NCBI GenBank assembly: GCA_964016885.1
Contig: OZ024743.1
Coordinates: forward strand, 107,260,001-107,324,000
Source: Eledone cirrhosa
Taxonomy: Eukaryota
Reading direction: 5' to 3'
Length of the DNA: 64,000 nucleotides
Positions 30,627-64,000 of the stretch are shown in pieces; positions within the stretch are counted from its first letter, which is position 1; every line of letters starts with the position of its first letter. The translations under genes and the position numbers were made by a program. The notes under the pieces are model-generated. The model did not search any database. It was not told where the DNA came from and saw only the letters and a program-made list of their open reading frames with translations.

Positions 30627-33130
<2,504 letters not shown>

Positions 33131-34077: not shown

Positions 34078-34625
34078 TGTTTCTACATGTTTCTACATTT
34101 GGCACAAGGTCAGCACTTATCCATTGAATTACTGGTACTTTATTTTATCGACCCCGTAGGGATGAAAGGCAAAGTCAACATCGGCGGGATTTGAACTCAG
34201 TATAGAAAGGGCTGTAACTCCATGCGTCAAAGCATGGCGTCTGACTCTCTAGCGATACTGCCAATCCACCTCCTCGATGTCTTAATAATAATTGTTTCTA
34301 CTTTTGGCACAAGGCGAGCAATTACCTAGTGTATTACTGGTACTTTATTTATCGACCCCGTAGGGATGAAAGGCAAAGTTATCCTCGGCGGGATTTGAAC
34401 TCAGAATGGAAAGGGCTGTAACTCCATGCGTCAAAGCATGTCGTCCGACCCTCTACCGATAATGCCAATCCACCGCCTTGATTGTCTTAATAATAATAAT
34501 AATTGTTTCTACTATAGACACAAGGCCATCACATTTGGCGCAGTGATGTCGATTAAATCGACCCCAGTGCATTACTGGTAGTTTATTTTATCGACCCCAT
34601 AAGGATGAACAGAAAAGGTAACGTA
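34078..34625 (-). mobile_element. Three head-to-tail tRNA-SINE copies
   Basis: Copies at ~34085-34275, 34292-34478 and 34503-34625, each preceded by GATT(A/G)TCTTAATAAT-like sequence. Confidence 0.8.
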
Positions 34626-41339: not shown

Positions 41340-41348
41340 TTTCTTCTT

Positions 41349-41441
<93 letters not shown>
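41340..41441. repeat. (TCT)n(TTA)n microsatellite at the left end of the retrotransposon array
   Basis: Direct reading. Confidence 0.95.
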
Positions 41442-41442
<1 letters not shown>

Positions 41443-43357
41443 CTTGAATCTCAGTCATTGATGTTGGTTAACTGGAAAGTCCGTTGGAATGAATATCAAG
41501 CCACTACCTGCAGCCTCAGATATTCAGGACGTATCGGAGGGTTCTTGCTGTTCCCAGTAAGCATGCCTTTTGAAGCGTTCCAAAAAGCGTGAAGGGGCCG
41601 ATTTTCTTTAACCATCTCTGGAAACTTTTGGAGATAGTCCCCAGTGCGCCTATGACAATCGGGATCACTTTGACATCATGGCATTTCCAAATCCTTTTTA
41701 CCTCCCACTTTAAGTCCTGGTATCGGTTGATTTTCTCCCTCTCCTTCTCTTGCACTCTCGTGTCGAATGGGCAGGCCACATCCACAATCAGACACGATCT
41801 TTTTTCTTTGTCCACAACCACCAGGTCAGGTCTATTGTGTTCCAGTTTCTTGTCCGTCTGTATCCTAAAATCCCACAGCACCTTCACCTGATCGTTCTCC
41901 ATCACCGCCTCTGGCCTATGCTCATACCATTTCTCAGAATGTGGTAAATTGTTTACTTTGCACAGGTGCCAGTGGATCACCCTGCCCATCACATCATGTC
42001 TCCAGCCCTTATAGTGGGTCTGGGCTAGGTGTTTACACTCGCATACAATGTGAGCCACAGTCCCCTCTCTCTCTCCACAGATCCTGCACAGTGGGCTAGC
42101 CTCCTCCTTGTAAATATGGTGTTTCAACCACTTCGTCTTGAGGGCCTGCTCCTGCGCAGCCATTAACATTCCTTCTGTAGCGTTTTTGAGGTCTCCTCAT
42201 CTCAACCAGTTCCATGTCTGTGGATCTCTAAATTCAGTTTTCTCAAAGAAGGTACTATGAAGGGATTTTCCCTGAAGGCTGCTCTTTCTCCTTGATGTTA
42301 TTTCCTCCTTCAGTACAGTTCTGAGCATTGGCTCCTTACTATCAGTCACGTATTTGTATAGGTTGTTTTTCTCCATCTAAACACAGTCCTCTATGCGGAT
42401 AAGACCTCTTCCACCCTCAGATCTCCTTAGGTAGAGTCTATCGACATCACTCCTCTTGTGGAACATGTTGTAGATAGTCAATAGCTTCCTAGTCTTCCTA
42501 TCCATTTCTTTTTATTCAGCAACATTCCATCTCAGAATTCCCGCACTGTACCTAATAATAGACACAGCTCGGGAATTTACTGCGCTTATGGCATTTTTGC
42601 TGTTCAGATGTGACTTCAATACGCTCCTTACTCTCCGAATGTATTCAGTTCTTAACAATTCCTTCATTTTTTTGTTCTTTATGCGATCAGCCTCCAGAAC
42701 GCCCAAATACTTGTATCCTTCCTCAGAGTCAATTTCCTTTATCATCTCACCTGCTGGTATCTGGATTCCGTTACTTCTGCTCAACCTACCCCTCCTCATC
42801 ACAATGACTCCACACTTACTAATACCAAACTGCATACATATATCACTGCTGAAAGTACGGACAGTGTCAACAAGCACATCCAACTCCTTCTCACTCTTCC
42901 CGAAGAGCTTAAGATCGTCCATGAAGAGAAGGTGACTGATGGTAAGCTCTCCCTTTCCCAACTTGTATCCTGCTCTCACTTTTCACAGCATAATGGTCAA
43001 GGGCATCAGGGCAAGGACAAACAACAGAGGGGACAGGCTATCTCCCTGGAAGATACCTCTCTTGATCTTCACGCTTCCCAAGGATTCTCCAGTTGATGTC
43101 AACTCTGTCTCCCAGGACCCCATACTCCTGCCCAGCAACTGTCTGATGTTATCTGCCACCTTGAAGATCTCCAGGCTTTTGGTGATCCAAAAATGAGGCA
43201 CCATGTCAAATGCCTTTCTGTAGTCTATCCATGCCATGGCAAGATCAGTGTGTCTCCTCCTGCAATTCCCCATTACCATCTTATCAATAAGTAACTGGTC
43301 CTTTGTACCACGTGACTTCTTTCGGCATCCTTTCTGTTCATCCGGTAACAAGTTGTT
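41442..43357 (-). mobile_element. R4/Dong-type RLE retrotransposon A, 5'-truncated, frameshifted
   Basis: [58 protein letters not shown]; (TAA)n tail; truncation abuts (TTA)n. Confidence 0.9.
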
Positions 43358-43377
43358 TTATTATTATTATTATTATT

Positions 43378-46300
43378 GAATGCCATGGTTGACGGAGGCT
43401 TGGCTCTGTAAGGTATAGTAATTTTTAACCGTTAAAACAATTGTAAATTGTTTAAAACTTGAACCAAATTGTTGATAAAGACACCCTCCTCCTCGTGAGA
43501 GGGGTCTTTCTGTCCGTTATTTGGCCCTTCGGGGTTAAATAACCAGTTATTGGGGTTTTGTACCCAAAATTTCATTTTAAACAAAAAAACAACATGGCTA
43601 CGAAAAAGAAATTTCATACGTCACTCCCACTCATTCCGTCTTCTTCTTCCTCAATCATCACTACAGCAGAGAGAAGATTGTCTCTCTCCCTCCCTTCTTT
43701 AAATGTGTCTCTCTCCCTCCCTTCTCTTTCGCAAGTGACGAAAGAAAAGAAAAGTCTCGTGCAAAGCGTACAAGGTTTCTCCACGACGACGACGACAGCG
43801 ACGAAACAGGTGTGCGGGAAATACGAAAACCCAGTTCATTCGTCTGACGTCAGGAATAATAGCAGTAGCAGCCGTAATAACAACAGCAACAGTGACAATG
43901 AAAACAACAGTAGCAGCCGCAACAGCATCACCAGCAGCATAAACAACAACAGCATTAGCAGCAGCAACACCAACAACAACCACAGCAACAGCGGCGGAGG
44001 CAGTAGTCGTAGTACCTGCAGCAACAACAAAAGTACCAGCAGCTCTGACGACAACAACAACAGCAGAGAAAAACCAATCTCATTTGCAGGTATTGCGAAA
44101 AACTTGGAAACAATCCTCATAACAAATGAGGAATTAGAGGAAGCGAAGAAGATGGTGACAAAGAACGGACACCGAGCAATCTGCAAGGCAGCGGAAAAAT
44201 TTTTCGAAACCCAAGAGCACTGTACGGTCACGTACCGTACAGTAAGTACAAAATCCCGTAGGGTGGAAAGAGCCACAGAGGCCCAAATACAAAAAGCCTT
44301 GGGGTCTGTGTGGCAGCGGAAAACGCACATCACCCGAGGCAAAAAATATGCCAGCGTAGACGTACTTTTTGCCACACCCCAGGAGGCAAAGGCCCAATCA
44401 GTAGTGACCCTAAGGAGCGAGGAAATGGTGTTGGTGCCCTCCTACTGCGGGCAAAAAATTGTGAGGGTCAAACTGACCCACGCCAGGGAATGACCCCTTC
44501 TTGGCTGGCCGCGTCTGTCCTCGTCGGAATCGAGGACAAAACAACTGTACTGCAAGTACAGAAAAAAGTAAGAGAAGATTGGGTCGGCTCCTCCATTGAG
44601 ATGCTAATCCAAACCAACCAGGAGTGCATCGAAGCTATCCCGGATGTGATAGACTTCGATAACGGCACTCAACTGCCCATAAGTGTTGAGGGCAAACGCC
44701 CGAAATGCTTTCGCTGTGGATCGAAGACTCACCTCAGGGCCTTCTGCAACGAGAAGACCCTGAGAAAGGAGAAAACCCCCCTCCTTCCGAATCCGGCTCC
44801 ACGGCTACCAGCAACAGGACAAGCGGCAACCAGGAACGATAGGCCCGTGGCACCCATACCCACTCCACGGAAATCAAAAACAGCAGCAGCAGTGGAAATA
44901 TTAACAACAACAACAGCAATACCAAATGCAGCTGCAACAGAGACTCCAGTGCAAACATCACCAACAACAACAAGTGAAAGAGTGGAGCTGGTACCCCTCC
45001 CCGACCTCACAGAATCAGACATGGAGTGTGAGGTGGGAGAGGGATGGCAAAAGGTCGTAAGAAGGCACAAACGCAGAAGCAGCGCATCGTCGCCTTTGAA
45101 AAGGGAGGAAAGAAATGAGAAAAGGGTAAAGTCTACTGCAAAGAGACCCACAGCAGCAACAACACCAACACCATCACCACCCACACTAGCACCACCATCA
45201 CCACCGGCGACAACCCCACCGCCAACAACACCTTCAACACCACCACCACAAGCACCAACATCGCAAACACAACAACAAAACACACACACCCAGCAACAAC
45301 GACAAGAAAATAGCAGAACCACACCCCACCCCCAGAAAAACAAATGCACGGCAATAAATACACACAACAAGAAACTAATGACTTACATAATTGAACACAC
45401 AGACATTTCACAACAGGACTACATAATACCAGCACCAATCAAAACGCCAACTAACATAAGACTGCTAAAAATAACACAGAAACAATACACAAATATTAAA
45501 ACGAAATTCCCCAACGCAGTTGGTGATTTCAGGGACCTAGAAGGAACCATCAATCGAAGAGTATACTCAGACATTCTCTTAGAAGAGCCGACGACCAGCC
45601 GAAGGGACGATTCAACGGTCCCTTCACCAGACGATCAAGTGAAAAGGGATGTAAAAACCATCCCTCCTCTACCAAAAGTACGGTAAGTGGTCTTCTCTCA
45701 CCCAGAAATGGGCGGAGAGGAAGCTATCCCTGAAAGGTCGAGCGGAGGTGGCTAACGCGTACATCGCGTCTGTCATCTGCTACCGCCTGACCGTCGTACC
45801 TTGTCCTAAGCCTCGCCTGACTGCGCTGGAGCGTTTGCTCTTTCGCTTTTTGTGGAAGGGACGTGCTCCGATGGTCAGGCGGTCCATCTGTTGTCAACAC
45901 CCGCTACGTGGAGGGCTGGGCATGCCGTGGTTGATGATGCGCAGGCACGCGCTCAGGCTACGACATCTCCACCTCTTCCTCGACGGTGATCAGGTGTGGT
46001 CGCCGTTTGCTAGGCGCGTATTTCCCCAGCTCGTTTCCTTGATGGAGCTGCAGTCCTGGGTCAAGCGAAGACCGAGAGGGAGCGCCTGGAGACTGGAATG
46101 TCTTCAGGCGCTCACAGCCCTCGACCAATCGGGCAATGTGATCGGTGGAAACTCCACCTCGGCGTTCTATAGAGGATTAGTGGAGGGTAAGAGCGACGAC
46201 GTACTTGGGGAAACTCTAGGCGTCGACGAAAATCAACTAGCCAATCTCTTCGGAAGAACTTTCGGGCCGGGGCCTATGGACAACTTCCAGAAATCTCTGG

Positions 46301-47035
46301 CCTGGCAGTGCTACCGAGGAGCCTTGCCAGTTCGGGATAAACTCTACAGGCATGGAGGTGCCGTCAGCCGGGCATGTCCGAGATGCGCGCAGGGCGACGA
46401 AACCGTCCTGCACGCACTCATCCAGTGTCCGAGCATTGCTGACTTGTGGGTTTATGTCGAACACCTGCTGTCACGTGTAGGACGGATCCAGCTATCAGCT
46501 GAGTCCATCGTGAGGATTGCCCCGCCCCCTTCCTTTAGCCTGGAAGGGCAGGCAGTTTTTATCTGTCTGGTGGCCATGGCGAAAGAGATAGTATGGTGGA
46601 CACGTTTGAAAGGGCTGAAGACGAGCACTTACCTCTTCGGTGATGCCCTGATTAACTTTTTCAAATTTCATTTGAAAAGGAAAATCAGGGTAGAGAGGGA
46701 AGTGCTTTCTTCCCAGCATTTTGTTGAAAGATGGGTGAGAGAAGCAAGTATGGCCCGAATGAAGGGGCCTTCTCTGAGTATGTGTCTGTAAATTAAAGGT
46801 GGAAAACTGGGAGAGGGCACTTGCCCTGGTGGTCAGGGCCACTGTGGTCTTTTAATGGGCTTTCTCCACAAATGTCCCTTGGAAGTCTCCCCCCTATTGG
46901 GGAATTTTTCTTTGTTATTTTTATTTCAACCTCTGTTTTTTTACACGCAGAAATGCCCATTTGTACCGTCCTGTATTGTCCTGTACTGTCCTTAATGTCT
47001 ACTTTATGTGAACCCTTGTGGTTAATAAAGAAAAC
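43378..47035 (+). mobile_element. Tx1-clade element B1: internally deleted copy of B2
   Basis: Near-identical to 51379-57404 but lacks ~2.35 kb of ORF2 (EN+RT); ORF1 frameshift near 44483; (TTA)n on both sides. Confidence 0.92.
43594..45686 (+). pseudogene. ORF1 (gag-like, CCHC knuckle) of B1, one frameshift
   Basis: ORFs 43558-44493 and 44310-45686 together match the B2 ORF1. Confidence 0.85.
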
Positions 47036-47057
47036 ATTATTATTATTATTATTATTA

Positions 47058-50000
47058 CAGTTGCATTTATCTTGCTTTATGTTCATACGAGTTATCACCA
47101 AGTCACAACCAGTGACCTCAAGAGACAACAAGGTCCGCCATGTTCAAGAAAGAAGATACATACTCACACATGCATCTTTAGTGTTTAGACTTGTGATGTA
47201 CTTATATTGACAGAATCTTCCTTAGTATATGGGCAGTTCCCATTAGTACTATCTTTTGGATTTCTCCTATACGCGGGTTTCCAGGGATTTGCGATAAGTA
47301 ATCATTAGACGCCTTAGGTATCATTCCCAGAGCGCCTACAACCACTGGTATTGTTTTAGTTCTCAATTTCCACATTTTTCCAATTTCTATCTCCAGGTCC
47401 TTATACTTGCTCAATTTTTCAAATGTTTTTATAGATACATTCTTGTCTATTGGAACGGACATATCAATTAGCAGGCATACCCTCTTTTGAAAGTCCTTCA
47501 ATATTATATCAGGTCTATTTGCATCTATTTTTCGGTCTGTTTGGATGCTAAAGTTCCACAAGATTGAGATGTGATCTTTTTCAAGTATGGGAGGTGGTTG
47601 ATGCTCCCACCAATTCTTTTGATGGAGCAGGTCAAAATGCTTACACATTATCCAATGTATGTATTGTGCAGCTCTGTCATGCCTGTTTAGGTATTCGGTT
47701 GGAGCTATAGGACTGCACATTGAAATTATATGGTCAATGGTCTCTGGTTGTTTTTTGCATACACGGCATAATGAGTTGCATCCATTTTTTATTATGTTGG
47801 CTTGGTAATTTTTTGTTGGCAGACACTGATCTTATGCTGATATAATCACTCCTTCAGTCTCCGATTTCAGTCCAGAGGATGCCAACCACTGATGGGTTAA
47901 AGTTTTGTCAACATCAGGATTGTTAGCTCGCTCTGGGTATTTTCCATACAGAGGCTTGTCTTGCCATTTCTTAGCCAGTTTCTGTAGCAGTTCTTTCTTT
48001 GCAGTTACTTTTACCTGCTTTGCTTTTTCTGTGTTTTCCATTTCAGCAGTAAATGGGACTTCTGAAATTTGTAGTCCATTACTGTATCTTTGTGCATCTT
48101 TTGTAATGGAATATGATCTTTTGATGCTTTCGTGTTTCAAAACGAGTTTGATCATCCAATCATGTGATTCCCTTAGATATGTAGATAATCCAATTGTTGC
48201 AGTTTTCAACGCAATGTCTAACTGGACTAACCCACGTCCTCCTTCTATCCTAGGGAGATATATTTATCCATATCTGCCTTAGGGTGATGCATTCTGTGCA
48301 TGGTAAAGAATTTTCGAATTTTTGTATCGAGCCTACGGATCTCTGTGCTTGACCAGTTGATGACATTGTAACTGTAAATTCCGTTCTTAAGATTGCTCTT
48401 ACTCTGCGGTAACATTCCTTCCTTATCTTTTCCCTCATTGTCGAGTGCTTGATTCCGTCTCCTTCACAAACACCTAGATATTTGTAAGTTTTTTCTTGAT
48501 CAAGTTCTCTTATCACGTTCCCCCGATCAAGATTAATGTCTGAACTCTTCAGCAGCTTTCCTCTGGTAAACGTTGCTTTGGCGCATTTATCTAGTCCAAA
48601 CTCCATTTTAATGTCATCACTGAACTGCTCCACAGTGGATGCCTTTGCAATTGTTCATCATTTTTTGCAAATACTTTCAGGTCATCCATGTAGAACAAGT
48701 GATTAATGGTTTTGTCATAGACTCTATATCCATGTTTTGCTTCATTGAGCATTTTACTTAATGGTATAAGTGCAATGCAGAATAAAAGCGGTGATAAAGA
48801 GTCACCCTGAAAAATTCCACAATTAATATTAACTTCTCCAGCTTCCAGCGATTTCGTTTCACTATTCAAAAGGAGTGTCGTTTTCCATGTCTTCATACTG
48901 AATGACAAAAACCTGACAACGGGGGATATTTTGAAAATCTCTAAACATTTTTCAATCCAACTGTGTGGCAAACTATCGAATGCTTTTTATAGTCTATCCA
49001 AGCAATTGATAGATTTTTGTGTCTATTATGACAATCTTCCAGTATCATTTTGTTAACCAAAAGCTGATTCTTACAGCCATATGAGCCTCGTTTACACCCT
49101 TTCTGCTCAATGTGAAATAGGTCATTTGTTATCAGGTGGTCATATGTGTATTCAGTTAGGACTGATGTTAAAATTTTATACATTGTGGTCAAGCAAGTTA
49201 TCGGTCTGTAATTTTTGGGATTGTTTGTCTCATCATTCTTCGGAAGCAGGAATGTAATGCCGTTAACTAGCCATGATGGTATCTTTTCTGGCTCCTTAAC
49301 TATTTCATTGTAAAGTTGGGCTAACAGCTCATGAGACTCTGTGAAGGCATTTATCCAAAAATTTTGTATTTTGTCTTTTCCTGGGGATTTCCATTTGCTG
49401 GTTTTTCTTAGAGCCTAGCGCAACTGTTCAACTGTTATGTTTTCCCATATTTGTTCCTCAAGGTGAGCTGTATCTTTCATTTGTCTGTCTATCCATGAAG
49501 CATTATGTTATGAACTTTTTCTTCGGCCCAGATCTTTTCCCAGAATTCTTGCACTTCCTCCTTGGGTGGTATTGATTTAGCAGTTATTGTTGACTTACCA
49601 ATTTTTCTGTAGAAGTTTCTTTGGTTGGTTTTGAACATATTATTGTCCTTATAGAATCTAGATCGTTTTTCAAAGCGCCTTATACGAGCAGCTTTGGTCG
49701 ACACTTTTTGCTTGATTATTTCTATCAGCATGTCTATGTCACTTGTTGATTTTATACTATACTTTCTTTTCAATTTTCTAAGTTTAGTTTGTTTAACATG
49801 TTCACCTACTTTATAGTTTGTTAAAATTTCTATGTCAGATCGGAGAAGGTTTATTTGGCGATTGATGTTCTCTTGCCAAGTAGATTTCTTGTGGGAATTC
49901 ATTTGTTTTTTCATCTTCACTCCACATAAGTGAGTGGTGACTTTAGCCGATGCATAATAGAGATGATTTAAATCAGTAATGTTTAGTTTGTTTGTGATGA

Positions 50001-50952
50001 TAATGTTTTTGAGAATTAAGTTAGTCTTGTGTATTATCTTTTGGTTCTGTTTGGAGTTCTGGATCTTAGGGAGGGTGTCTCGTTGCTCCATGTCAGATTC
50101 TTTCATTTTCATCCATTCGGTCATAATTTCATCCTTCAAGTTGGCAAGTTCATTCTCATTCATTTCTTTATCATTTACGATCTCATTATTTTCATTTGGA
50201 GTTTCATCTTGAGCATGCACTCCCTCCACTTTTTCGATCCTTTCTTTAATTTGTTCTGTTGCCAGTGATTCCGCCCCAACCCTGGGATTCGAAGTGTTAC
50301 AATTTACCTCGTTTTCACTGACACATGTTTCATTTTCCCTTCGCTGACTTTGTGCTAATAGCTTGATCTGATCAATTTCTATATCAGCTAGTAACTTTTT
50401 TTTAACAATATTTCTTCGTATATTGGCTAGTTTGTTACTGTCAATATAGCCTCTGTTTTCGGGATGTTTCTTTTTCCAGTTGATATATGTCTATTCTGTA
50501 TTCGATGTATTTGATGGGTAGTACATGGCAGTGTAGAAAGCCTCAAGGACTTCTTTATTATCTTCCCTTGACCCTTTTTCTCTCTTTTTCTTTGGATTTC
50601 TTGGTGGTGAGCATGGAGGGCCAACAGTAGGAGTATTCCGGTCATGGGAGGTCTCCAGCTCCGAAGTGATGGGAAGGTTTGAACCATTAGCTGATTTTTC
50701 GACCCCAGTCTGGTTCCTCTCTGAGGGACGCGGCCCTTTTTTACCCGGGTGACGGCCGATCCGGTATGAGATTTTATCATTAGATATTTACTTTATTTTG
50801 TCGCGTTTTATCCTTATCCGCCAAGGGTTAATCATTTCGTGTTACCACTTCTAGAACGAGTGTCAACCAAGACTAGAGGGGTCGTTCTCCCCTAGAGACA
50901 CGGCTATTCCCCGGCGGCCGCCATCCCGGTATTTCTTGGTCACGGGGTTTTC
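47058..50952 (-). mobile_element. R4/Dong-type RLE retrotransposon C, near full length, multiple frameshifts (family distinct from A/E)
   Basis: N-terminal KLANIRRNI block, [56 protein letters not shown]; (TAA)n tail; GC-rich 5' leader. Confidence 0.9.
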
Positions 50953-51039
50953 TTTTTTGTTTTTTTTTTAAATTGTTATTATCATGAGTGGTTCCTTAAT
51001 GTGAGCATTGCGTGACTTAAGAATGAAATTATTAATAAC

Positions 51040-51092
51040 AATAATTGTCTCCACTCCAGGCACAAGGCCAGCAATCACCCAGTGCATTACAA
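51040..51092 (-). mobile_element. 3' stub of the tRNA-SINE inside the array spacer
   Basis: GGCACAAGGCCAGCAATCACCCAGTGCATTAC. Confidence 0.6.
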
Positions 51093-51591
51093 TAATATAA
51101 TATACTTATTGCTGAAGTTGCCTGTTATTGTTGTTGGCTATGTCGGTGGTGGTGCTGGGGCTTTTTATATTGTTGGTGAGGAAGGGGGGAGCCAGCAGTG
51201 CCATAGTTGTTGACGTTTGGCCGGTGGCCAGGTCACTAAGTCAATCTATTTATATCTTTTGCTAGCATCTCCCTTGTCTAGTGATACCGCGACCTTCCTC
51301 TTTCTTAAGTTAACAGGGGAATAGTGGTGGTAGCAATGAAGGATTATTATTAATATTATTATTATTATTATTATTATTGAATGCCATGGTTGACGGAGGC
51401 TCGGCTCTGTAAGGTATAGTAATTTTTAACCGTTAAAACAATTGTAAATTGTTTAAAACTTGAACCAAATTGTTGATAAAGACACCCTCCTCCTCGTGAG
51501 AGGGGTCTTTCTGTCCGTTATTTGGCCCTTCGGGGTTAAATAACCAGTTATTGGGGTTTTGTACCCAAAATTTCATTTTAAACAAAAAAAC

Positions 51592-53688: not shown

Positions 53689-53723
53689 GTGGTCTTTCCC
53701 ATCTTTTCCACTCTATTTTAAAC

Positions 53724-56700
53724 ATGACCTCACTCAGAATAGGCAGCATAAATGCGCGTGGCTTGGGGTCGTCATGGAAGCAGGGTCACCTGCTCAACGA
53801 CCTCAGGTCACTAAACATAGATGTAGTGGCCATCAGCGAGACCAGAATCTCCGAAGCACGGGCCTTCGCACCGATCTTCGGCGGCTACGATGTGTACGCA
53901 TCTCCCAGCCGTCCTGGATCGGGTGGAGGAGTTGCTGTGCTTTTTCGGAGAGGTTTGGATCTCGCCATACGGGCCATCTTCCTGGACCCAGAGGGTAAGC
54001 TGGTGGTGCTGGACGTGACCAGCGGAGACGGGCAAGCTTTCAGGCTAGTGGCCGTCTATGCCCCGACAGGAGCAGGGCGGCCTGATTTCTTCCGGCGTCT
54101 GGAGACCTTTCTTGGAACGTCCCGCTCTTTAGTGTTAGTGGGCGACTGGAACGGGATCTTAGATGCACGCTGGGACTGTGTGGGATTAGCGGATAGGGGT
54201 GGAGGGTGCAAGAGCCTCACCAACCTGCTCAGGCGTTTTGAACTGTCTGACAGGTACCGATTGGATTTCCCGAATGTGCCAATGTGGACTTGGACAAACC
54301 GCATAGGGTCATCCAGATCATATCTAGATAGAGTATTTTGTAGAGAAATAGATAGGTCTAGCATAGGCTGTCCACAATTCAAGATAGTCAGCTACACGGA
54401 CCACAAATTCGTGACCTGTGTGCTTGACTTAGATAGGCTTCATAGACGAGGACCCGGCTACTGGAAGCTAAACGCGTCCTTACCAGCGCGCAAGGCCTAC
54501 AGAGACCGGATTAGCGAACTAGTTAAGCGGGCGTTGACGGGGGCCATCGTCAACAACAAGTGGTGGTTTGCTCTGAAAAGAGCGATTAGAATAGAATCGA
54601 TTAGGTTTAGTAAGGCTTTAGCAATAGAGAAAAATAGAGCAGAGGGAGAACTAGTTAGAAAATTAGACGAGGCGCTTAGCAAAGGCATTGCGACCGACGT
54701 GCTTGCGGCGAAATTGGCCCTTGACCAATTCTTCAATGCAAAGCACGAAGGCTGCGTTGTCAGAGCTAGGGTGCGTGCTCTCAGACACGAGGGGACGAAA
54801 GCCGTTCAATGGGCCCGAGTGGCGGAGGCGCGTCGTGGCAACAAAGCCACGATCCGGTCTTTGGTGGACCACGACGGGCGCATGCTACTCGATCCCGGGC
54901 AAATGTGTGAAGCTTTTCAGCGACACTTCGCTCAGCTGTTCGGGGGCAGCGGGGGGCCGGGTAGAGGGATGGACTTTAGTGTCTACCTCGACGGACTGCC
55001 GCGGCTCTCGGCCACTGAGGCGAGGTGTTGCGAAAAGCCGATAACAGCCGCTGAAGTACGGGAGGCAATGACTGGCTGCACAAGGGGTAAATCGCCTGGT
55101 TTGGATGGTCTGCCCTATGAACTTTACGTACAGATGCCAGACTTGTTCGGAGGCCTCTTGGCGGACGTCTACTGCAACTGGCAACAGAACGGGAGAATTC
55201 CCAGTTCTGTGAGCCGAGGAGCGGTGGCACTGCTGAGAAAGGATCCGAACAAGGGGGATAACATAGACAATTTCCGGCCCATAACTCTGCTAAACACAGA
55301 GTTTAAGATTTTGGCCAAGGTGCTAGCAAAGAGGTTGGCGCTTGTCGTTGGTGGTCTGGTGGGAGAGGCGCAGACATGCGCCATTCCCGACAGATCCATC
55401 CACGACAACCTCCACCTCATGCGATACATCGTAGAGAGGGTAGCTAGGGAACCTGGCACGGGTGGGTCCTTGATCAATTTAGATCAGTCGAAAGCTTTCG
55501 ATAGGGTCGACCATCGTTACCTAGCGGCAGTCCTGAGGGCGGCTGGCTTTGGGCCCGTCTTCAGAGGCTGGATCGCTGCCATGCACAGCGACATCTGCTC
55601 TGTGGTGAGAGTGAACGGTCACCTGTCGGAACCGTTCAACATCATGCGCTCGGTCCGCCAAGGATGTCCCCTCTCGTCCCTCTTGTACGTATTGACTCTC
55701 GAGCCATTACTGCACAAACTGGAGACGTTGAGGGGAGTCCCGCGCGAACTAGGATGCGGAAGATCCGTGTCAGCATATGCGGACGATGTCACTGTAGTGG
55801 TGTCGAACGCCAAACACATCGAGGCGATCGGCACTACACTAAGAGAATACGAAGCGGTGACAGGAGCAATGATCAACCAGGAAAAGTCAGTGGGCCTGCA
55901 GCTCGGCACCTGGAGAGGCAGGTCCATGCCGTCCAACAGCGTCGTCGGGCGCTGGACGGACGGACCGGTTAAATTGCTAGGGGTCTGGTTCGGTCCGGAC
56001 CTCCAGACGGACAAAAACTGGGACGAGGTGACGAGCAGGGTGGCTTCTCTCACCCAGAAATGGGCGGAGAGGAAGCTATCCCTGAAAGGTCGAGCGGAGG
56101 TGGCTAACGCGTACATCGCGTCTGTCATCTGCTACCGCCTAACCGTCGTACCTTGTCCTAAGCCTCGCCTGACTGCGCTGGAGCGTTTGCTCTTTCGCTT
56201 TTTGTGGAAGGGACGTGCTCCGATGGTCAGGCGGTCCATCTGTTGTCAACACCCGCTACGTGGAGGGCTGGGCATGCCGTGGCTGATGATGCGCAGGCAC
56301 GCGCTCAGGCTACGACATCTCCACCTCTTCCTCGACGGTGATCAGGTGTGGTCGCCGTTTGCTAGACGCGTTTTTCCCCAGCTCGTTTCCTTGACGGAGC
56401 TGCAGTCCTGGGTCAAGCGAAGACCGAGAGGGAGCGCCTGGAGACTGGAATGTCTTCAGGCGCTCACAGCCCTCGACCAATCGGGCAATGTGATCGGTGG
56501 AAACTCCACCTCGGCGTTCTATAGAGGATTAGTGGAGGGGAAGAGCGACGACGTACTTGGGGAAACTCTAGGCGTCGACGAAAATCAACTAGCCAATCTC
56601 TTCGGAAGAACTTTCGGGCCAGGGCCTATGGACAACTTCCAGAAATCTCTGGCCTGGCAGTGCTACCGAGGAGCCTTGCCAGTTCGGGATAAACTCTACA

Positions 56701-57143
56701 GGCATGGAGGTGCCGTCAGCCGGGCATGTCCGAGATGCGCGCAGGGCGACGAAACCGTCCTGCACGCACTCGTCCAGTGTCCGAAAATTGCTGACTTGTG
56801 GGTTTATGTCGAACACCTGCTGTCGCGTTTAGGACGGATCCAGCTATCATCTGAGTCTATCGTGAGGATTGCCCCGCCCTCCTCCTTTAGCCGGGAAGGG
56901 CAGGCAGTTTTTATCTGTCTGGTGGCCATGGCGAAAGAGATAGTATGGTGGACACGTTTGAAAGGGCTGAAGACGAGCACTTACCTCTTCGGTGATGCTC
57001 TGATTGACTTTTTCAAATTTCATTTGAAAAGGAAAATCAGAGTAGAGAAGGAAGTGCTCTCTTCCCAGCATTTTGTTGAAAGATGGGTGAGAGAAGCAAG
57101 AATGGCCCGAGTGAATGGGCCGACTCTGAGTATATATCTGTAA
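53724..57143 (+). CDS. B2 ORF2, APE endonuclease + reverse transcriptase + Cys-rich domain (1139 aa)
   Basis: SINARGL, ISET, GDWN, YLDR, TDH, KSPGLDG, DQSKAFD, RQGCPLS, AYADD, CPRC..ETVLHALVQC. Confidence 0.95.
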   Translation: MTSLRIGSINARGLGSSWKQGHLLNDLRSLNIDVVAISETRISEARAFAPIFGGYDVYASPSRPGSGGGVAVLFRRGLDLAIRAIFLDPEGKLVVLDVTSGDGQAFRLVAVYAPTGAGRPDFFRRLETFLGTSRSLVLVGDWNGILDARWDCVGLADRGGGCKSLTNLLRRFELSDRYRLDFPNVPMWTWTNRIGSSRSYLDRVFCREIDRSSIGCPQFKIVSYTDHKFVTCVLDLDRLHRRGPGYWKLNASLPARKAYRDRISELVKRALTGAIVNNKWWFALKRAIRIESIRFSKALAIEKNRAEGELVRKLDEALSKGIATDVLAAKLALDQFFNAKHEGCVVRARVRALRHEGTKAVQWARVAEARRGNKATIRSLVDHDGRMLLDPGQMCEAFQRHFAQLFGGSGGPGRGMDFSVYLDGLPRLSATEARCCEKPITAAEVREAMTGCTRGKSPGLDGLPYELYVQMPDLFGGLLADVYCNWQQNGRIPSSVSRGAVALLRKDPNKGDNIDNFRPITLLNTEFKILAKVLAKRLALVVGGLVGEAQTCAIPDRSIHDNLHLMRYIVERVAREPGTGGSLINLDQSKAFDRVDHRYLAAVLRAAGFGPVFRGWIAAMHSDICSVVRVNGHLSEPFNIMRSVRQGCPLSSLLYVLTLEPLLHKLETLRGVPRELGCGRSVSAYADDVTVVVSNAKHIEAIGTTLREYEAVTGAMINQEKSVGLQLGTWRGRSMPSNSVVGRWTDGPVKLLGVWFGPDLQTDKNWDEVTSRVASLTQKWAERKLSLKGRAEVANAYIASVICYRLTVVPCPKPRLTALERLLFRFLWKGRAPMVRRSICCQHPLRGGLGMPWLMMRRHALRLRHLHLFLDGDQVWSPFARRVFPQLVSLTELQSWVKRRPRGSAWRLECLQALTALDQSGNVIGGNSTSAFYRGLVEGKSDDVLGETLGVDENQLANLFGRTFGPGPMDNFQKSLAWQCYRGALPVRDKLYRHGGAVSRACPRCAQGDETVLHALVQCPKIADLWVYVEHLLSRLGRIQLSSESIVRIAPPSSFSREGQAVFICLVAMAKEIVWWTRLKGLKTSTYLFGDALIDFFKFHLKRKIRVEKEVLSSQHFVERWVREARMARVNGPTLSIYL

Positions 57144-57402
57144 ACTAAAGGTGGAAAACTGGGAGAGGGCACTTGCCTTGGTGGTCAGGGTCATTGTGGC
57201 TTTTTACTGGGCTTTCTCCACAAATGTCCCTCCGAAGTCTCCCCCCTATTGGGGAATTTTTCATTGTTATTTTCATTGTTATTTTTGTTACATCCTCTGT
57301 TTTTGTTTTTTACACGCAGAAATGCCCATTTGTACCGTCCTGCATTGTCCTGCACTGTCCTTAATGTCTACTTTATGTAAACCCTTGTGGTTAATAAAGA
57401 AA

Positions 57403-57446
<44 letters not shown>

Positions 57447-57656
57447 GACGAAAGTGGATGTACGTTTTTTGAAGCTCCGTGAGTAAGCAATTTTTGAGGA
57501 TTAATTGTAGAGAATTGTTTATTTTTTGTACCGCTGAAGCATTATAAGACATTAATTTGTATCCTGTGAAGGAATAACTCATAATATTTGGGCCTTTTGG
57601 CCCAAATATTTGAACTTTATTTTGAAAAAAATAATAATTTTTTTTCTCAAAAAAAC

Positions 57657-59567
57657 ATGGCGGAGCCACGCCCCCTAGAGGCGGGTCTGCTGTCGTGCAA
57701 CGGCGACTTGAGCGTTGAGAGGAGAGGTGAGGCGAGGAGCGCCACCAGCACGAATGTGAGCAGCGACAGTGCCAGCACCAACGGGCCGAGCGGCGCGGAA
57801 GGTGGTAACAGCGACAACACCAACACCAACAAGCCGAACAGCGCAGAAGGTGGTAATAGCGAGAGCACCAACAAAACGAACAGCACAGAGAGTAATAGTA
57901 GCGACAGCAGCAGCACCAACAAGGCCAACAGCACAGAAGGTAACCACGACACAGGGGAGAACAACAACAGCAATAGCAGCAGCAACACCAACAAGAACAA
58001 CAACAGTGACAACACCAACAAGAACACTTTCGCTGCTGTGGCAGCGGCTAAAAGGAGACCATGCTACAGCATCGACTTAACCAACAGAGAGGAAAAGTTG
58101 GCCCAGGCCTGGAAAATCATAAATCAAGAGCAGACCTGGGCAAACTTAACTGTCCCGGCAGAAGCCATTGAGGCAGTGGAAAAAAGAACGGTGCATTTCA
58201 GATGCATCTCAGTAGAGACAAAGAGGGCAGCGATAATCGCCCAAGCTGACATAGAAGCCGCACTGAAATACATCAGAGAGGACACAGACTTCATAGAGAG
58301 GGGCAGGCAATACGGCACCGTTTCGGTGCTGTTCAAGTCTGAAGCCCTCGCTGTGAAGCATTCAATGACCCCTTGCAAAACCAGCAAGGTCATAATGTAC
58401 CCCTCCCACATGGGAAAACGAATAGCACGTGTGCGCATTCCCAGGATTCCACCAGGACTTGATATGTGGTGGCTCCTGGGTTGCGTAATCGTGGAAGGAA
58501 CGGATACAGTCCCGGTAGAGGCAACGAGAACTGCCAGGGACGACTGGTCCGGGGTTGATCTGGAGATACTGCTCCAAATCAGACCCGAAAACGTAAAAAC
58601 AATCCCGGACCACATCCGCCTCCAAAACGGGAGGGTGTTGCATATAATGACTGAGGGCAAAAGGCCGCATTGTTTCCTTTGTGGGGAAACGACACACTTG
58701 CGAGCCTTCTGCCCTCAACTGCCGAAAAGCGCAAGGGGTCGAAAGATTCCACTGCTGGCGACGCCGGGACAAGGACCACCAGCAACACCGTCAACAATGG
58801 AACCACCAAAATTGCACACCCAGGGGGGAAACGAGGAAAGCTCTCCCATTCCCCCTCCCCCCCAAAATACACACACGAACAAGAACATAAACACTCACTC
58901 AGACACAAACACGCTCACAGCCACAGACCCCTCATCCTCCAGCAGTGAAGATGAGGGAAAACCAAAGTCCCCCAAAATACAAAAAACAAAACACAAAAAA
59001 AAAAGAAATCCACAAAGCACAAACACCCCCACAAAAAAAAATACACACACCACCCACACAAACATTTTCCCCACAGCATCACCAACACAACCACCAAAAT
59101 CCCCCAAACGCAAACAAGCTAAACAGACACAAGAACAAATAGACACACAAACATCAGAAACTACAGACACCCCACCCACAACAAACGCAGACACAATAGA
59201 AACAACACTAACAAAGCTATCACCACCACAATCACACGAACAAATAAAACCCGAGCAACAAAACATTAAAAACTTCGTGCTTGCCAGAAGGGCCAACAAG
59301 GAATTGATGGCCCATGTAGCACGAAGCACAAACATCGAAAAAGACGGGGAAACATTTGAAGCGAGCACATTTCGCGTACCAGATAATTTGCTTCTGATGC
59401 GAATGTCGCTCGCTTCATACAAAGAAATTCGAAAGAGCTTTCCTCGGGATGTGGGAACCCCGAACGTAAAACCCACGTCAAGACTATTAAAGGGGTTCCC
59501 AAAAGAAACCCCACAAACCATGGAGGTCGAACCACCCGACCTTCACAAGACCCCGGAAGGTAAGTAA
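57657..59567 (+). CDS. D ORF1, gag-like protein
   Basis: AAAAACATGG start, Asn/Ser-rich N-terminus, knuckle CFLCGETTHLRAFC. Confidence 0.88.
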   Translation: MAEPRPLEAGLLSCNGDLSVERRGEARSATSTNVSSDSASTNGPSGAEGGNSDNTNTNKPNSAEGGNSESTNKTNSTESNSSDSSSTNKANSTEGNHDTGENNNSNSSSNTNKNNNSDNTNKNTFAAVAAAKRRPCYSIDLTNREEKLAQAWKIINQEQTWANLTVPAEAIEAVEKRTVHFRCISVETKRAAIIAQADIEAALKYIREDTDFIERGRQYGTVSVLFKSEALAVKHSMTPCKTSKVIMYPSHMGKRIARVRIPRIPPGLDMWWLLGCVIVEGTDTVPVEATRTARDDWSGVDLEILLQIRPENVKTIPDHIRLQNGRVLHIMTEGKRPHCFLCGETTHLRAFCPQLPKSARGRKIPLLATPGQGPPATPSTMEPPKLHTQGGNEESSPIPPPPQNTHTNKNINTHSDTNTLTATDPSSSSSEDEGKPKSPKIQKTKHKKKRNPQSTNTPTKKNTHTTHTNIFPTASPTQPPKSPKRKQAKQTQEQIDTQTSETTDTPPTTNADTIETTLTKLSPPQSHEQIKPEQQNIKNFVLARRANKELMAHVARSTNIEKDGETFEASTFRVPDNLLLMRMSLASYKEIRKSFPRDVGTPNVKPTSRLLKGFPKETPQTMEVEPPDLHKTPEGK

Positions 59568-59596
59568 ACCTTTCCTCTCCCATTCATCCTGCCAGC

Positions 59597-62500
59597 ATGG
59601 CCATAAGAGTAGGAAGTTTAAATGTTCGTGGCCTGGGGTCGCCCTGGAAGCAAGGTCACTTGCTCAACGACCTCAGGTCACTAGGAATGGATGTAATTGC
59701 CATCAGCGAGACCAGAATTTCCGACACACGCGCACTGGCGCCGATTTTCGACGATTATCAGATCTTTGCATCTGTTAGTCGGCCGGGAATGGGAGGTGGA
59801 GTGGCTGTGCTGTTTAGGAAATGTCTGGATCTCGAGGTAAGGTCAATCTTCCGGGATCCTGACGGAAAGTTGGTGGTCCTGGACGTGAGCAATAGCGAAG
59901 GTGGTGCCTTTAGACTGGTGGCCGTCTACGCCCCTACTGGGGCCGGTCGGCCGGACTTCTTTAGGCGCCTGGAAAACTTTCTGCTTACGTCTCGCCCTTT
60001 ACTGTTAATAGGGGATTGGAATGGCATCTTAGAAGCACGCTGGGATTGTGTGGGAGTATCTGATAGGAGCGGGGGGTGCAAAAGCCTCAAGTACCTGATC
60101 AGCCAGTTTCAACTGTCTGACAGGTACCGACTAGATTTCCCTAATGCGCCAGTATGGACCTGGACCAATCGCATAGGGTCATCTAGATCGTACATAGATA
60201 GGATTTTCATTAGGAAAAGAGATAGAAATAGTGTAGGATGTCCACATTTTAAAACGGTTGCCTATTCAGATCACAAGCTTGTGATCTGTATGGTCGACCT
60301 AGATAAGACACGTAGGTTAGGACCTAGCTACTGGAAGCTAAACATGTCGTTTCCGGCACGTAAAGCTTACAGGGACCGGGTCAACAACTTAGTTAAGCAA
60401 AAGTTGACAGGGGGGGTTGTCAACAACAGGTGGTGGGGGGCACTCAAAAGAGAGATTAGAGCAACCTCGATAGGATTTAGCAAAGAAGTAGCAATAGAGA
60501 AAAATAGAAAGGAGGAGGGGCTGATAGCTAAGTTAGACGAGGCTATTTGTAGTGGCATTGCAACAGACGTGCTAGCGGCGAGAATGGCACTAGACCATTT
60601 CTTCAATGCGAAACACGAAGGTTGCATTGTCAGAGCTAAGGCGCGTGCTCTGAGGAACGAGGGAACCAAAGCTGCCCGATGGGCTCGCTTTGCAGAGACG
60701 CAGCGTGGAAATAAAACCACAATTCGGTCTTTGACGGATCGAGATGGACACGAACTGAGCGATTCCAAGCAGATGTGTGAGGCCTTTCGCCAGCACTTTG
60801 CTCGATTGTTCGGGAGGATGGGTGAGTCGGAGACGGCGGCGGACTTCAGTCCCTACCTCGACGGCTTGCCACGCCTCTCGACGGCCGACGCTGAGCGCTG
60901 CGAAGAGCCGATAACATCAGCCGAAATTCAGGACGCCCTTGTCGGCTGCTCGAGTCGCAAGTCACCCGGTTTGGATGGTCTGCCCTACGAGCTTTACGTA
61001 AATATGCCAGACTTGTTCTCCGATCTCCTCGAAGCGCTCTACTGCAACTGGCAGCAGAACGGGAGCATTCCCAGTTCTGTGAGCCGTGGCGTAGTGACGC
61101 TGATAAGGAAAGACGAGAACAAGAGGGACACACTAGATAATTTCAGGCCCATAACCCTGCTCAACACAGAGTTTAAGATTTTGGCCAAGGTGTTAGCGAA
61201 AAGGTTGGCGCTTGTCGTCAAAGATTTGGTTGGGGAGGCGCAAACTTGCGCAATCCCGACCAGGTCCATACACGACAACCTCCACCTCATGCGATACATC
61301 ATAGAGAGGGTTGGGTGCAAACCTGGCTTCGGTGGGGCTCTGATCAATTTAGATCAATCGAAAGCATTCGATAGGGTCGACCATCGGTACTTGGAGGCTG
61401 TCCTCGAGGCGGCTGGCTTCGGCCCCGTCTTCAGAAGCTGGATCGCTGCAATGTACAGCGGCATCCGCTCGGTGGTCAAAGTTAATGGCCACCTCTCGGA
61501 ACCGTTTCAGATCTCTCGATCGGTCCGTCAAGGGTGCCCTCTCTCCTCACTTCTGTACGTATTGACTCTTGAGCCTCTACTGCGGAAGCTGGAGTTGTTG
61601 CAGGGCATCCCGCTCGAACCGGGACGTAGAAAGGCTGCGTCCGCTTATGCGGACGACATCACCGTGATGGTGTCGGACACCTCGGAAATCGAGGTGATCC
61701 GCACCCATTTGGAGGAATATGAAAGGTTGACGGGAGCAAAACTTAACCCGGAAAAGTCGGTGGGCTTGCAGCTCGGCACCTGGAGAGGCAAGTCCATGCC
61801 GTCCAACAGCGTCGTTGGGCGCTGGACAGACGGACCGGTAAAGTTGCTCGGGGTTTGGTTCGGACCAGACCTCCAGGTGGATAAGAATTGGGACGAGGTG
61901 ACGAGCAGGATAGCCAACCTCACCCAGAAATGGGCTGAGAGAAAGCTATCACTGAAAGGGCGGGCGGAGGTGGCGAACGCGTACATCGCGTCCGTCATCT
62001 ACTACCGCCTGACCGTCGTGCCTTGCCCCCGTCCACGCCTCGCCAATTTGGAACGGCTCCTTTTCAAATTTTTGTGGAGGGGACGGGTCCCGTTGGTGAG
62101 GCGGTCCATCTGCTGCCAGCACCCTCTTCGTGGAGGGCTGGGCATGCCGTGGCTAATGATGCGCAGACATGCGCTGAGGCTGCGACATCTCCAGATATTT
62201 TGCCTAAACGGTGAACAGGTGTGGTCGCCGTTTGTTAGACGGGCCTTTCCGCAGCTCATCTTTTTGACTGAGCTGCAGTCCTGGGTCAAGAAGAGACCGA
62301 GACTGGGCGACTGGCATCTGGAATGTTGCCAGGCGCTCACTGCACTCTGCAAGGTGGGCAATGCGGTCAGTGGAACTTCCACTCAAGATTTCTATAGAGG
62401 ATTAGTGGAGGGCAAGTGCGATGACGTACTAGGAGAGGCTCTGGGCGTCAACGAAGTAGAACTGACCAGTATGTTCCGGAGGACTTTCGAGCCGGGGACG

Positions 62501-63016
62501 ATGGATAACTTCCAGAAATCCCTCGCTTGGCAGTGCTACCGGGGGGCGCTGCCGGTTCGGGATAAACTCTACAGGCACGGAAGTGCTGTCAGACGAACCT
62601 GCCCGAGATGCGCGCAGAGCGACGAAACCGTTCTGCACGCACTCGTCCAGTGTCCGTGCATTGCTGACTTGTGGGGTTATGTCGAACAGCTATTGTCGCG
62701 TGTAGAACGGATCCGGCTATCGTCCGAGTCCATAGTGAAGATTGACCCGCCGCCTTCTTTTGGTCAGGAAGGGCAGGCAATTTTCCTCTGCCTGGTGGCA
62801 GTAGCGAAAGAGGTTGCATGGTGGACCAGGTTGAAAGGACTGAAGACAGACACTTTTCTCTTCGGCCAATCCCTCATCAACTTCTTCAAGTTTCACTTGG
62901 AAAGGAAGGTGAGGGTGGAGAGAGAAGTGCTGCCCCCCAGTACATTTACTGAAAGGTGGGTGAATGTGGCGAGAATGGCCCGCGTGAGTGGGCCTACTCT
63001 GATCATGCGCCTGTAG
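59597..63016 (+). CDS. D ORF2, APE endonuclease + reverse transcriptase (1139 aa)
   Basis: SLNVRGL, GDWN, YIDR, SDH, AYADD, CPRC; collinear with B2 ORF2. Confidence 0.95.
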   Translation: MAIRVGSLNVRGLGSPWKQGHLLNDLRSLGMDVIAISETRISDTRALAPIFDDYQIFASVSRPGMGGGVAVLFRKCLDLEVRSIFRDPDGKLVVLDVSNSEGGAFRLVAVYAPTGAGRPDFFRRLENFLLTSRPLLLIGDWNGILEARWDCVGVSDRSGGCKSLKYLISQFQLSDRYRLDFPNAPVWTWTNRIGSSRSYIDRIFIRKRDRNSVGCPHFKTVAYSDHKLVICMVDLDKTRRLGPSYWKLNMSFPARKAYRDRVNNLVKQKLTGGVVNNRWWGALKREIRATSIGFSKEVAIEKNRKEEGLIAKLDEAICSGIATDVLAARMALDHFFNAKHEGCIVRAKARALRNEGTKAARWARFAETQRGNKTTIRSLTDRDGHELSDSKQMCEAFRQHFARLFGRMGESETAADFSPYLDGLPRLSTADAERCEEPITSAEIQDALVGCSSRKSPGLDGLPYELYVNMPDLFSDLLEALYCNWQQNGSIPSSVSRGVVTLIRKDENKRDTLDNFRPITLLNTEFKILAKVLAKRLALVVKDLVGEAQTCAIPTRSIHDNLHLMRYIIERVGCKPGFGGALINLDQSKAFDRVDHRYLEAVLEAAGFGPVFRSWIAAMYSGIRSVVKVNGHLSEPFQISRSVRQGCPLSSLLYVLTLEPLLRKLELLQGIPLEPGRRKAASAYADDITVMVSDTSEIEVIRTHLEEYERLTGAKLNPEKSVGLQLGTWRGKSMPSNSVVGRWTDGPVKLLGVWFGPDLQVDKNWDEVTSRIANLTQKWAERKLSLKGRAEVANAYIASVIYYRLTVVPCPRPRLANLERLLFKFLWRGRVPLVRRSICCQHPLRGGLGMPWLMMRRHALRLRHLQIFCLNGEQVWSPFVRRAFPQLIFLTELQSWVKKRPRLGDWHLECCQALTALCKVGNAVSGTSTQDFYRGLVEGKCDDVLGEALGVNEVELTSMFRRTFEPGTMDNFQKSLAWQCYRGALPVRDKLYRHGSAVRRTCPRCAQSDETVLHALVQCPCIADLWGYVEQLLSRVERIRLSSESIVKIDPPPSFGQEGQAIFLCLVAVAKEVAWWTRLKGLKTDTFLFGQSLINFFKFHLERKVRVEREVLPPSTFTERWVNVARMARVSGPTLIMRL

Positions 63017-63306
63017 GCTGGTGAATTCGAGAAGGAGAGGGGTGCCCTTCCCGGGTGCCCTAGGAGCGTCGGGTGGCTCAGGACTGGTGGGGTGCTTGAG
63101 TCAACCCTGGGTGGTGATCCCTCTTATTGGGGAACTTTCATTGTTGTATTTTTATTGTTATTTTGTTTTTGTTTTTTTGTTATTTATACTTACTCGATCT
63201 CTATGTAAACCCCCACTGTCCCTGTCTATTGTGTTGTCCCCTATATGTCGGCCCTTGTGGCCAATAAATGAAATCATTATTATTATTATTATTATTGTTG
63301 TTATTA

Positions 63307-64000
63307 CTCTTTGAGTCTCATTCATTGATGTTAGTTAACTGGAAAGTTTGTTGAAATGAATATCAAGCTACTACCTGCAGCCTCAGATATTCAGGACATA
63401 TCGGAGGGTTCTTGCTGTTCCCAGCAAGCATGCCTTTTGAAGCGTTCCAAAAAGCGTGAAGGGGCCAATTTTCTTTAACCATCCCTGGACACTTTTTGAG
63501 ATAGTACCTAGTGCGCCTATGACAATCGGGATCACTTTGATTTCATGGCAGTTCCAAATCCTTTTTACCTCCCACTTTAAGTCCTGGTATCGGTTAATTT
63601 TCTCTCTCTCCTTCTCTTGCACTCTCGTGTCAAATGGGCAGGCCACATCCACAATCAGGCACGATCTTTTTTCTTTGTCCACAACCACCAGGTCAGGTTT
63701 ATTGTGTTCCAGTTTCTTGTCCGTCTGTATCCTAAAATCCCACAGCACCTTCACCTGATCGTTTTCTATCACCGCCTCTGGCTTATGCTCATACCACTTC
63801 TCAGAATGTGGTAAATGGTTTACTTTGCATAGGTGCCAGTGGATCACCCTGTCCATCACATCATGTCTCCAGCCCTTATAGTGAGTCTGGGCTAGGTGTT
63901 TACACTCGGATACAATGTGAGCCACAATCTCCTCACTCTCTCCACAGATCCTGCACAGTGGGCTAGCCTCCTCCTTGTAAATATGGTGTTTCAACCACTT
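63307..64000 (-). mobile_element. R4/Dong-type RLE retrotransposon E (same family as A); runs off the window
   Basis: ORF 63383-63994 and 3'UTR closely match A; tail-to-tail with D across (TTA)n. Confidence 0.9.

Follow-up and report, generated by a model that had tools for sequence, protein, structure and literature searches.

In the genome of Eledone cirrhosa, retrotransposons of two lineages very probably occupy the same simple repeat, (ATT)n/(AAT)n, in opposite orientations: Tx1-like elements (families B and D), which encode an apurinic/apyrimidinic endonuclease (APE), and Dong/R4-type elements (families A/E and C), which encode a restriction-like endonuclease (RLE). Priming on opposite strands, combined with duplication of the target, is the likely way in which their arrays grow. 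This reading is carried by a strict strand rule, a fixed register of the Tx1-like junctions, young and intact B and D copies, and arrays whose spacers are nested duplications. It starts from an array found in a stretch of 64,000 nucleotides (contig OZ024743.1 of assembly GCA_964016885.1, positions 107,260,001 to 107,324,000 of the forward strand; hereafter the window) and extends to the whole 3.0-Gb assembly, where the loci are the best-scoring matches of each search, a choice that favours young copies and does not amount to a census. The array and one related element are laid out as follows, with reverse transcriptase abbreviated to RT and open reading frame to ORF.

41341-41441, no strand: left boundary microsatellite, read as (TTC)12.7 and then (TTA)21.7
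41442-43357, - strand: A, Dong/R4-type, 5'-truncated and frameshifted, with partial RT, CCHC and PD..D RLE (from domains and motifs)
43358-43377, no strand: (TTA)6.7 run between A and B1
43378-47035, + strand: B1, a copy of Tx1-like family B with a frameshift in ORF1 and a 2.35-kb internal deletion
47036-47057, no strand: (ATT)7.3 run between B1 and C
47058-51343, - strand: C, a second Dong/R4-type family, with a broken ORF and a 5' truncation of ~750 bp
51344-51378, no strand: (ATT)12 run with one interruption, between C and B2
51379-57404, + strand: B2, full-length family B (ORF1 51592-53688, ORF2 53724-57143)
57405-57446, no strand: (ATT)14 run between B2 and D
57447-63275, + strand: D, full-length family D (ORF1 57657-59567, ORF2 59597-63016)
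63276-63310, no strand: (ATT)n run between D and E, turning imperfect at the 3' end of E
63311-64000, - strand: E, a 5'-truncated family A copy that ends at 64257, outside the window (from sequence comparison)
30730-33130, - strand: F, outside the array, an older 5'-truncated copy of a sister Tx1-like family (from sequence comparison)

The element order and strands given in a preliminary description of this DNA were recovered, all Tx1-like elements being on the + strand and all RLE elements on the - strand, and the Tx1-like junctions are uniform (5' TTATT|GA in 3/3, 3' C|ATTATT in 3/3). The "430-bp spacer" of that description (about 50931-51343) had to be abandoned, as it is the 5' region of C itself: a genome search gives 1461 candidates for this sequence, every one of the 30 loci fetched has it colinear with C, and in the 29 other C copies it runs on past the stop point of the window copy. 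A fragment of a short interspersed nuclear element (SINE) is embedded in this region, at ~51030-51090. The array elements are separated by zero non-element DNA. Beyond the window, three more Dong fragments (A', C' and A'') and TTA runs continue to ~65,690, which brings the array to 10 elements in 24 kb; its copies are mutually distinct and its flanks are unique on either side. The array is real and is one case of a genome-wide, recently active pattern. Its locus is not special, since mixed arrays are present on many contigs, and they were met in 1 of 20 10-kb stretches taken at fixed positions.

Full-length 5' ends were counted over the loci in hand after deduplication, with an ATT run of at least five units as the threshold. 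All 22 B ends and all 41 D ends (63/63 together) lie on such a run, and the last five bases before the element are TTATT in 62 of the 63, so that the register noticed in the window is fixed genome-wide. A first search with the 5' end of B had given ATT at the junction in 26/26 matches and TTATT in 25/26 (B1 included), a set biased to diverged copies because very common words were skipped; the D junction reads TTATT|GACG in all 30 copies fetched out of the 40 scored (window D included), and 19 of 20 young B copies start at TTATT|GA, the remaining one having an internal break. The 3' ends lie on the expected strand in 42/42 B and 39/39 D copies (81/81), and likewise in 61/61 A and 22/22 C copies (83/83), 32 of the A ends being imperfect AAT/AAC tails on the TAA strand. 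The two clades thus face opposite ways throughout the genome, and the outcome feared at the outset, i.e., non-TTA 5' flanks or random orientation, is contradicted by the 63 full-length 5' ends. Truncated 5' ends are the stricter test, as they cannot carry a tail: those of Dong copies adjoin at least three TAA units in 50/61 cases and TTA in 0/61, and those of B adjoin at least five TTA units in 7/13. Both sets of junctions indicate that TTA is a target and not merely a tail, as had been proposed. At one locus (L038), where TAA gives way to TTA within the repeat, the orientation of the Dong copy reverses as well. The background is low, with seven perfect (TTA) runs of at least five units (189 bp, ~0.1%) in 200 kb sampled at fixed positions. 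The available text of PMC4494074 (the other papers are likewise cited for such partial text) speaks of target preference when a target is found in >20% of flanks; for B and D the figure is 63/63.

The Tx1-like copies B2 and D are both intact. Their two ORFs are unbroken, ORF2 encodes an APE, an RT and a zinc finger (PF03372, PF00078 and PF13966 in both), and the APE catalytic motifs are conserved and align with L1 ORF2p. The ORF1 translations of both families contain a CCHC-like knuckle (Cx2Cx4Hx4C), without Pfam match, which we take to be a mark of Tx1. B2 and D are 75% identical in ORF2 and 35% identical over 254 residues in ORF1, and the two parts of B1, whose deletion takes out the APE and most of the RT, match B2 at 98.5% and 95.5% identity. 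The nearest named relative of D ORF2 is a protein of Argonauta hians (69%) and the best match to a named protein is Xenopus Tx1 ORF2 (30%); bit scores, which come from different searches, are 306 for Tx1L (residues 1-800) and 197 for human L1 ORF2p (full protein length). The RT tree was built from 38 rows (five short F matches dropped; no L1 reference; Kibi and Koshi themselves absent). In it, B, D, F and the Argonauta protein make up a separate 100/100 clade, and this lineage stands in an open fork with the Tx1L group. The Tx1L group, which lies apart from B/D, includes the (CT)n-flanked element P0098 (L367), which is Tx1-like and has a long, Kibi-like (CT)n 5' flank.

Family D has 461 candidates in the genome by its 5' end and 2178 by its 3' end. 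Thirteen full-length D copies are 1-17 substitutions apart in 5.8 kb, all with an open ORF2, and copies elsewhere differ from window D by 2-13 substitutions; between B2 and each of nineteen B copies there are 17-59 substitutions, and ORF2 is open over >1100 residues in 15 of the nineteen. As judged from these copies, both families have been active very recently. Among the 20 public sequencing runs listed for B/D words, six contain at least half of the words; all are short-read contigs, and no RNA is listed. Relatives found in metagenomes (80 loci, of which the ends of 19 were inspected) have no ATT flank, most of these contigs stopping short of the element ends. Some features of the ORFs may be added. 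In B and D, a splice-donor-like GGTAAGT coincides in part with the stop codon of ORF1 (window 53685-53690 and 59559-59564); F loci L322-L349 have GGTGAGT instead, and a pyrimidine tract separates this motif from the ORF2 ATG, which together form a possible splicing or re-initiation signal. One locus (L139) is a B/D chimera, and three B copies (L185, L211 and L280) have an ORF1 region swapped upstream of position 2262; these are cases of module exchange between subfamilies.

The Dong/R4-type copies A, C and E of the window are broken and 5'-truncated, and retain RT, CCHC and PD..D motifs. A and E belong to a single RLE family (E is 94.5% identical to A); C carries the same motifs and shares 31-60% amino-acid identity with A in tblastx segments. 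Full-length members of family A are ~4.55 kb long, and an intact one (L214) encodes 1141 aa in a single ORF with RT, CCHC and PD..D and no APE. Dong copies elsewhere are ~93-98% identical to those of the window. The 120 homologues listed for the Dong-type protein share 33-68% identity with it, none bearing a clade name. Although their proteins share only ~40-50% identity, A and C have one common 5' head (L210:5560-5625, L101), and in some full-length Dong copies this head is separated from the TAA run by (GAA)n. An Rfam search, the only one made on a full-length A head, gave nothing credible and no 5' HDV-like ribozyme (PMC3774820), and an Rfam scan of the array gave no ribozyme or small nuclear RNA (snRNA) head.

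The proposal that such arrays extend on themselves is borne out by homotypic arrays: D forms three of them, with 3-4 copies each, and B forms three with 5, 5 and 10 copies. The largest contains ten head-to-tail B copies over 57 kb (G000:C1, about 441.09-441.14 Mb; L430-L433, L450-L451, L454) and sits in an imperfect ATT stretch of the 3' untranslated region (UTR) of one RTE element. Its spacers measure 50, 51 (six times), 36 and 30 nt and every one is a suffix of the upstream target; one of them starts with G right after the B end, with no ATT tail. The copies are 5-84 substitutions apart, and the most diverged one stands at the 3' end. Such a pattern is the signature of target duplication. 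At another locus (L316), a 27-nt duplication has its interruption present on both sides. An identical 839-bp C (Dong) fragment, and flanks of 243-257 bp, recur between B copies at two loci (G000:C1 55.42-55.46 Mb, L461-L465; 234.59-234.62 Mb, L457-L460); these repeated fragments and flanks may be long target duplications or recombination products. The length of the target duplication thus looks variable, from <=6 bp up to 51 bp and perhaps ~890 bp. Within one RTE site family, D and B have inserted separately on several contigs, and at its empty sites the run length is too variable to size a duplication. Unequal exchange also acts, as indicated by identical 5' segments in neighbouring copies. 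Of the earlier claim that each insertion renews the target by its copied tail, the renewal therefore stands, while the tail as its means does not: the renewal looks to come mainly from duplication of target DNA, with a contribution from unequal exchange.

The 5' neighbours are Tx1 tails in 11/30 D and 11/20 young B copies and Dong elements in 5/30 and 5/20, respectively, and Dong is the neighbour of 13/26 older B copies. As 3/7 of the long background runs already flank such elements, these counts show no attraction beyond the common target. At L276, a B copy adjoins a broken antisense D-like copy, at the internal break of that copy. It is the only real one of three neighbours labelled "Tx1-", the other two and the neighbours labelled "RTE-" having been rejected as low-complexity noise.

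Several points weigh against a single target used under a strict strand rule and duplicated at each insertion. Eleven of the 61 truncated Dong junctions lie on neither strand of the repeat, and 6/13 truncated B and 2/2 truncated D junctions are off TTA runs by the rule used, although four of the six B junctions seem to be breaks of subfamily or alignment, and one of the two D junctions belongs to a B/D chimera. The samples consist of best-scoring matches and are biased to young copies, the putative specificity of the B and D endonucleases is read from junction sequences, and the arrays are known from the assembly. Two D copies (L229 and L237) permit a duplication of at most 6 bp. Finally, array neighbours have identical 5' parts, one pair being identical throughout, and some spacers are copies made by recombination or assembly duplicates.

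On the model of target-primed reverse transcription described in the available text of PMC1919474, the growth of the arrays may be pictured as follows. The nicking of opposite strands that the preliminary description proposed follows from this model. B and D would place their nick in the AAT strand, with priming at an ATT(ATT) motif. Their 5' end would be joined at the end of an ATT run of at least five units downstream of the nick, hence duplications of variable length; this joining could involve cutting of the second strand or pairing of an ATT-extended cDNA end. The Dong elements would follow a mirror-image process on the TTA strand. In pure repeat sequence, the nick positions are unreadable. 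Each insertion would duplicate target DNA, so that the site could be reused and the array would grow, and unequal exchange would supply extra copies in homotypic arrays. Fresh targets would also be seeded by an ATT-ended SINE and by the ATT runs of the RTE 3' UTR. The two clades have a common niche, mutual dependence is not required, and nothing indicates an interdependence of the clades or a role for the host.

A variant that deserves some credence, though we consider it the less probable course, affects no more than the 5' step and can be reconciled with most of this scheme. Transcription would start 15-18 nt upstream, within the repeat, so that the 5' ATT run would travel with the RNA; the cDNA end would then anneal to an ATT run downstream of a loose ATT(ATT) nick, and pairing, rather than a strict endonuclease, would set the register and the variable duplication. 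This would fit the 5' runs, which never fall below five units in the 63 full-length copies when 3' runs go down to two, the duplications of <=6 bp to hundreds of bp that end exactly at ATT runs, and a SINE that primes at ATT yet has a long 5' run in just 1/35 copies; moreover, R2 acts similarly with upstream 28S sequence, according to the available part of PMC3774820. However, 7/13 truncated B copies abut 5-20 ATT units, which the 5' end of an RNA could not supply, and family F swaps both its tail and its 5' flank to TATC.

It is unlikely that arrays mostly arise from recombination or tandem duplication between repeats and microsatellites instead of repeated insertion. Tandem D arrays do bear array-specific variants, adjacent B copies do have identical 5' segments (two being identical throughout), and the repeated flanks (243-257 bp and ~890 bp) are longer than one would expect of target duplications. 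Nevertheless, a single site has nested spacers of three different lengths, copies within an array differ as much (up to 84) as unlinked ones do, at the 55-Mb locus of C1 the middle copy has 13 private changes and is no simple hybrid of its neighbours, and the window mixes four families with differing truncation points. That TTA is merely a 3' tail with passive clustering, or that the array is misassembled, is very improbable: the array is indeed known from the assembly and one adjacent B pair at another locus shows 0 differences, but the 5' and truncated junctions on the repeat obey a strict strand rule that contradicts the tail, all window copies differ and have unique flanks on both sides, and the identical architecture is found on many contigs.

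Family F points to a change of target within the lineage of B and D. In the longer ORF2 matches it shares 63-65% identity with D, and it has 2437 3'-end candidates genome-wide. The window copy ends in (TC)n. An ATT tail was found in 0/30 F loci, TATC is seen within 12 nt in about 24/29 other copies (by eye), and the 5' alignment starts have ATCT nearby in 21/29 cases and ATTATT in 0/29; full-length 5' ends could not be fixed from the F loci. As F is sister to D (100/98) within the 100/100 clade that includes B, ATT is the parsimonious ancestral target. In a loop aligned to what we assume to be the hairpin position of the L1 endonuclease, B and D have NRIGSS, and three of four in-frame F copies have NRSGTS. 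This hairpin influences specificity in TRAS1 and R1Bm, according to the available text of PMC1919474. Two predicted hairpin residues are therefore candidates for the use of (TATC)n by F; other residues differ too.

The SINE-like element is ~185 bp long and abundant (window example 34088-34487, - strand, and many other places), with motifs that we take to be RNA polymerase III A/B-box-like. It ends at ATT in 29/35 copies and is flanked by duplications of 10-21 bp in 24/35 (0-3 in mismatched controls). Over its last 36 nt it is similar to the ends of D and F (0/1000 shuffles each), with no significant likeness to B (107/1000 shuffles), A, C or RTE; its mobilisation by the B/D/F lineage is a lead suggested by this resemblance. 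A microsatellite-specific SINE was considered and rejected, as a long 5' run is present in only 1/35 copies. The RTE-like family (L240-L269) is young, with C-terminal zinc fingers and a (TATG)n tail, and its 3' UTR has two ATT stretches that are repeatedly struck by B and D.

Joined into one account, these data would describe an undescribed and still active octopod Tx1-like lineage that targets (ATT)n independently of Kibi and Koshi and opposite to Dong, populates thousands of interstitial sites with arrays 25-57 kb long, duplicates as much as ~890 bp of flanking DNA that lies between two ATT runs, mobilises an abundant ATT-ended SINE that seeds its targets, and gave rise to F by a switch to (TATC)n through two hairpin residues. 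As a whole, this account is tentative and more doubtful than the shared use of the repeat.

The elements described here add an AT-only target to those of microsatellite-specific Tx1-like elements and provide a case of APE and RLE lineages that split one repeat by strand. Two intact families with the same target (75% identical) and a close sister with another one leave few residues to test. In cephalopod genomes, arrays and long flank duplications probably also give rise to structural variation and to difficulties with assembly and markers; L1-Tx1 and Dong-R4 elements have been reported there as active or expanded, without target information in the available text (PMC13282606, PMC8967140). How microsatellites are targeted is not well understood, according to the portion of PMC3812793 at hand. 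A literature search found neither an ATT- or TATC-specific Tx1 family nor such a pairing in the text available; Repbase, Dfam, Kojima and Fujiwara 2004 or the supplements of PMC4494074 may name one.

The Dong side of the pairing is known. According to the available text of PMC7998251 and PMC3812793, most Dong elements of insects, molluscs and cnidarians target TAA, in line with what the preliminary description stated. Like Dong of Bombyx, DongAg and DongBg (R4 clade), A and C have a single ORF with RT, CCHC and PD..D RLE and have their sense strand on (TAA)n, and nothing different in kind was found. For Tx1, the microsatellite targets given in the accessible sections of PMC4494074 are TC (Kibi), TTC (Koshi) and TTCC/TTTC (crocodilian Tx1). 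B and D resemble these elements by their two ORFs, their APE, RT and zinc finger and their microsatellite target; they differ by their AT-only (ATT)n target, and F by (TATC)n, no B or D end being found on (TC)n or (TTC)n.

Two known pairings can be compared with the one described here. SART and TRAS, in silkworm telomeric repeats, are likewise two families that occupy a single tandem repeat, facing opposite ways, and build arrays (PMC10088271, available part), but both belong to the R1 clade, encode an APE and are telomeric (PMC1919474), whereas APE and RLE lineages meet here in an interstitial, genome-wide repeat. The analogy with SART/TRAS that had been drawn thus holds for the architecture and fails for the clade and the telomeric setting, and no host role is indicated. 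In U2 snRNA genes, Keno (APE, Tx1) and Utopia (RLE) also converge on one target, as reported in the accessible text of PMC4640811; they use the same 3' flank within a gene in the same orientation, whereas B/D and Dong use a self-renewing simple repeat in opposite ones. The pairing therefore resembles SART/TRAS in architecture and Keno/Utopia in convergence, and is neither.

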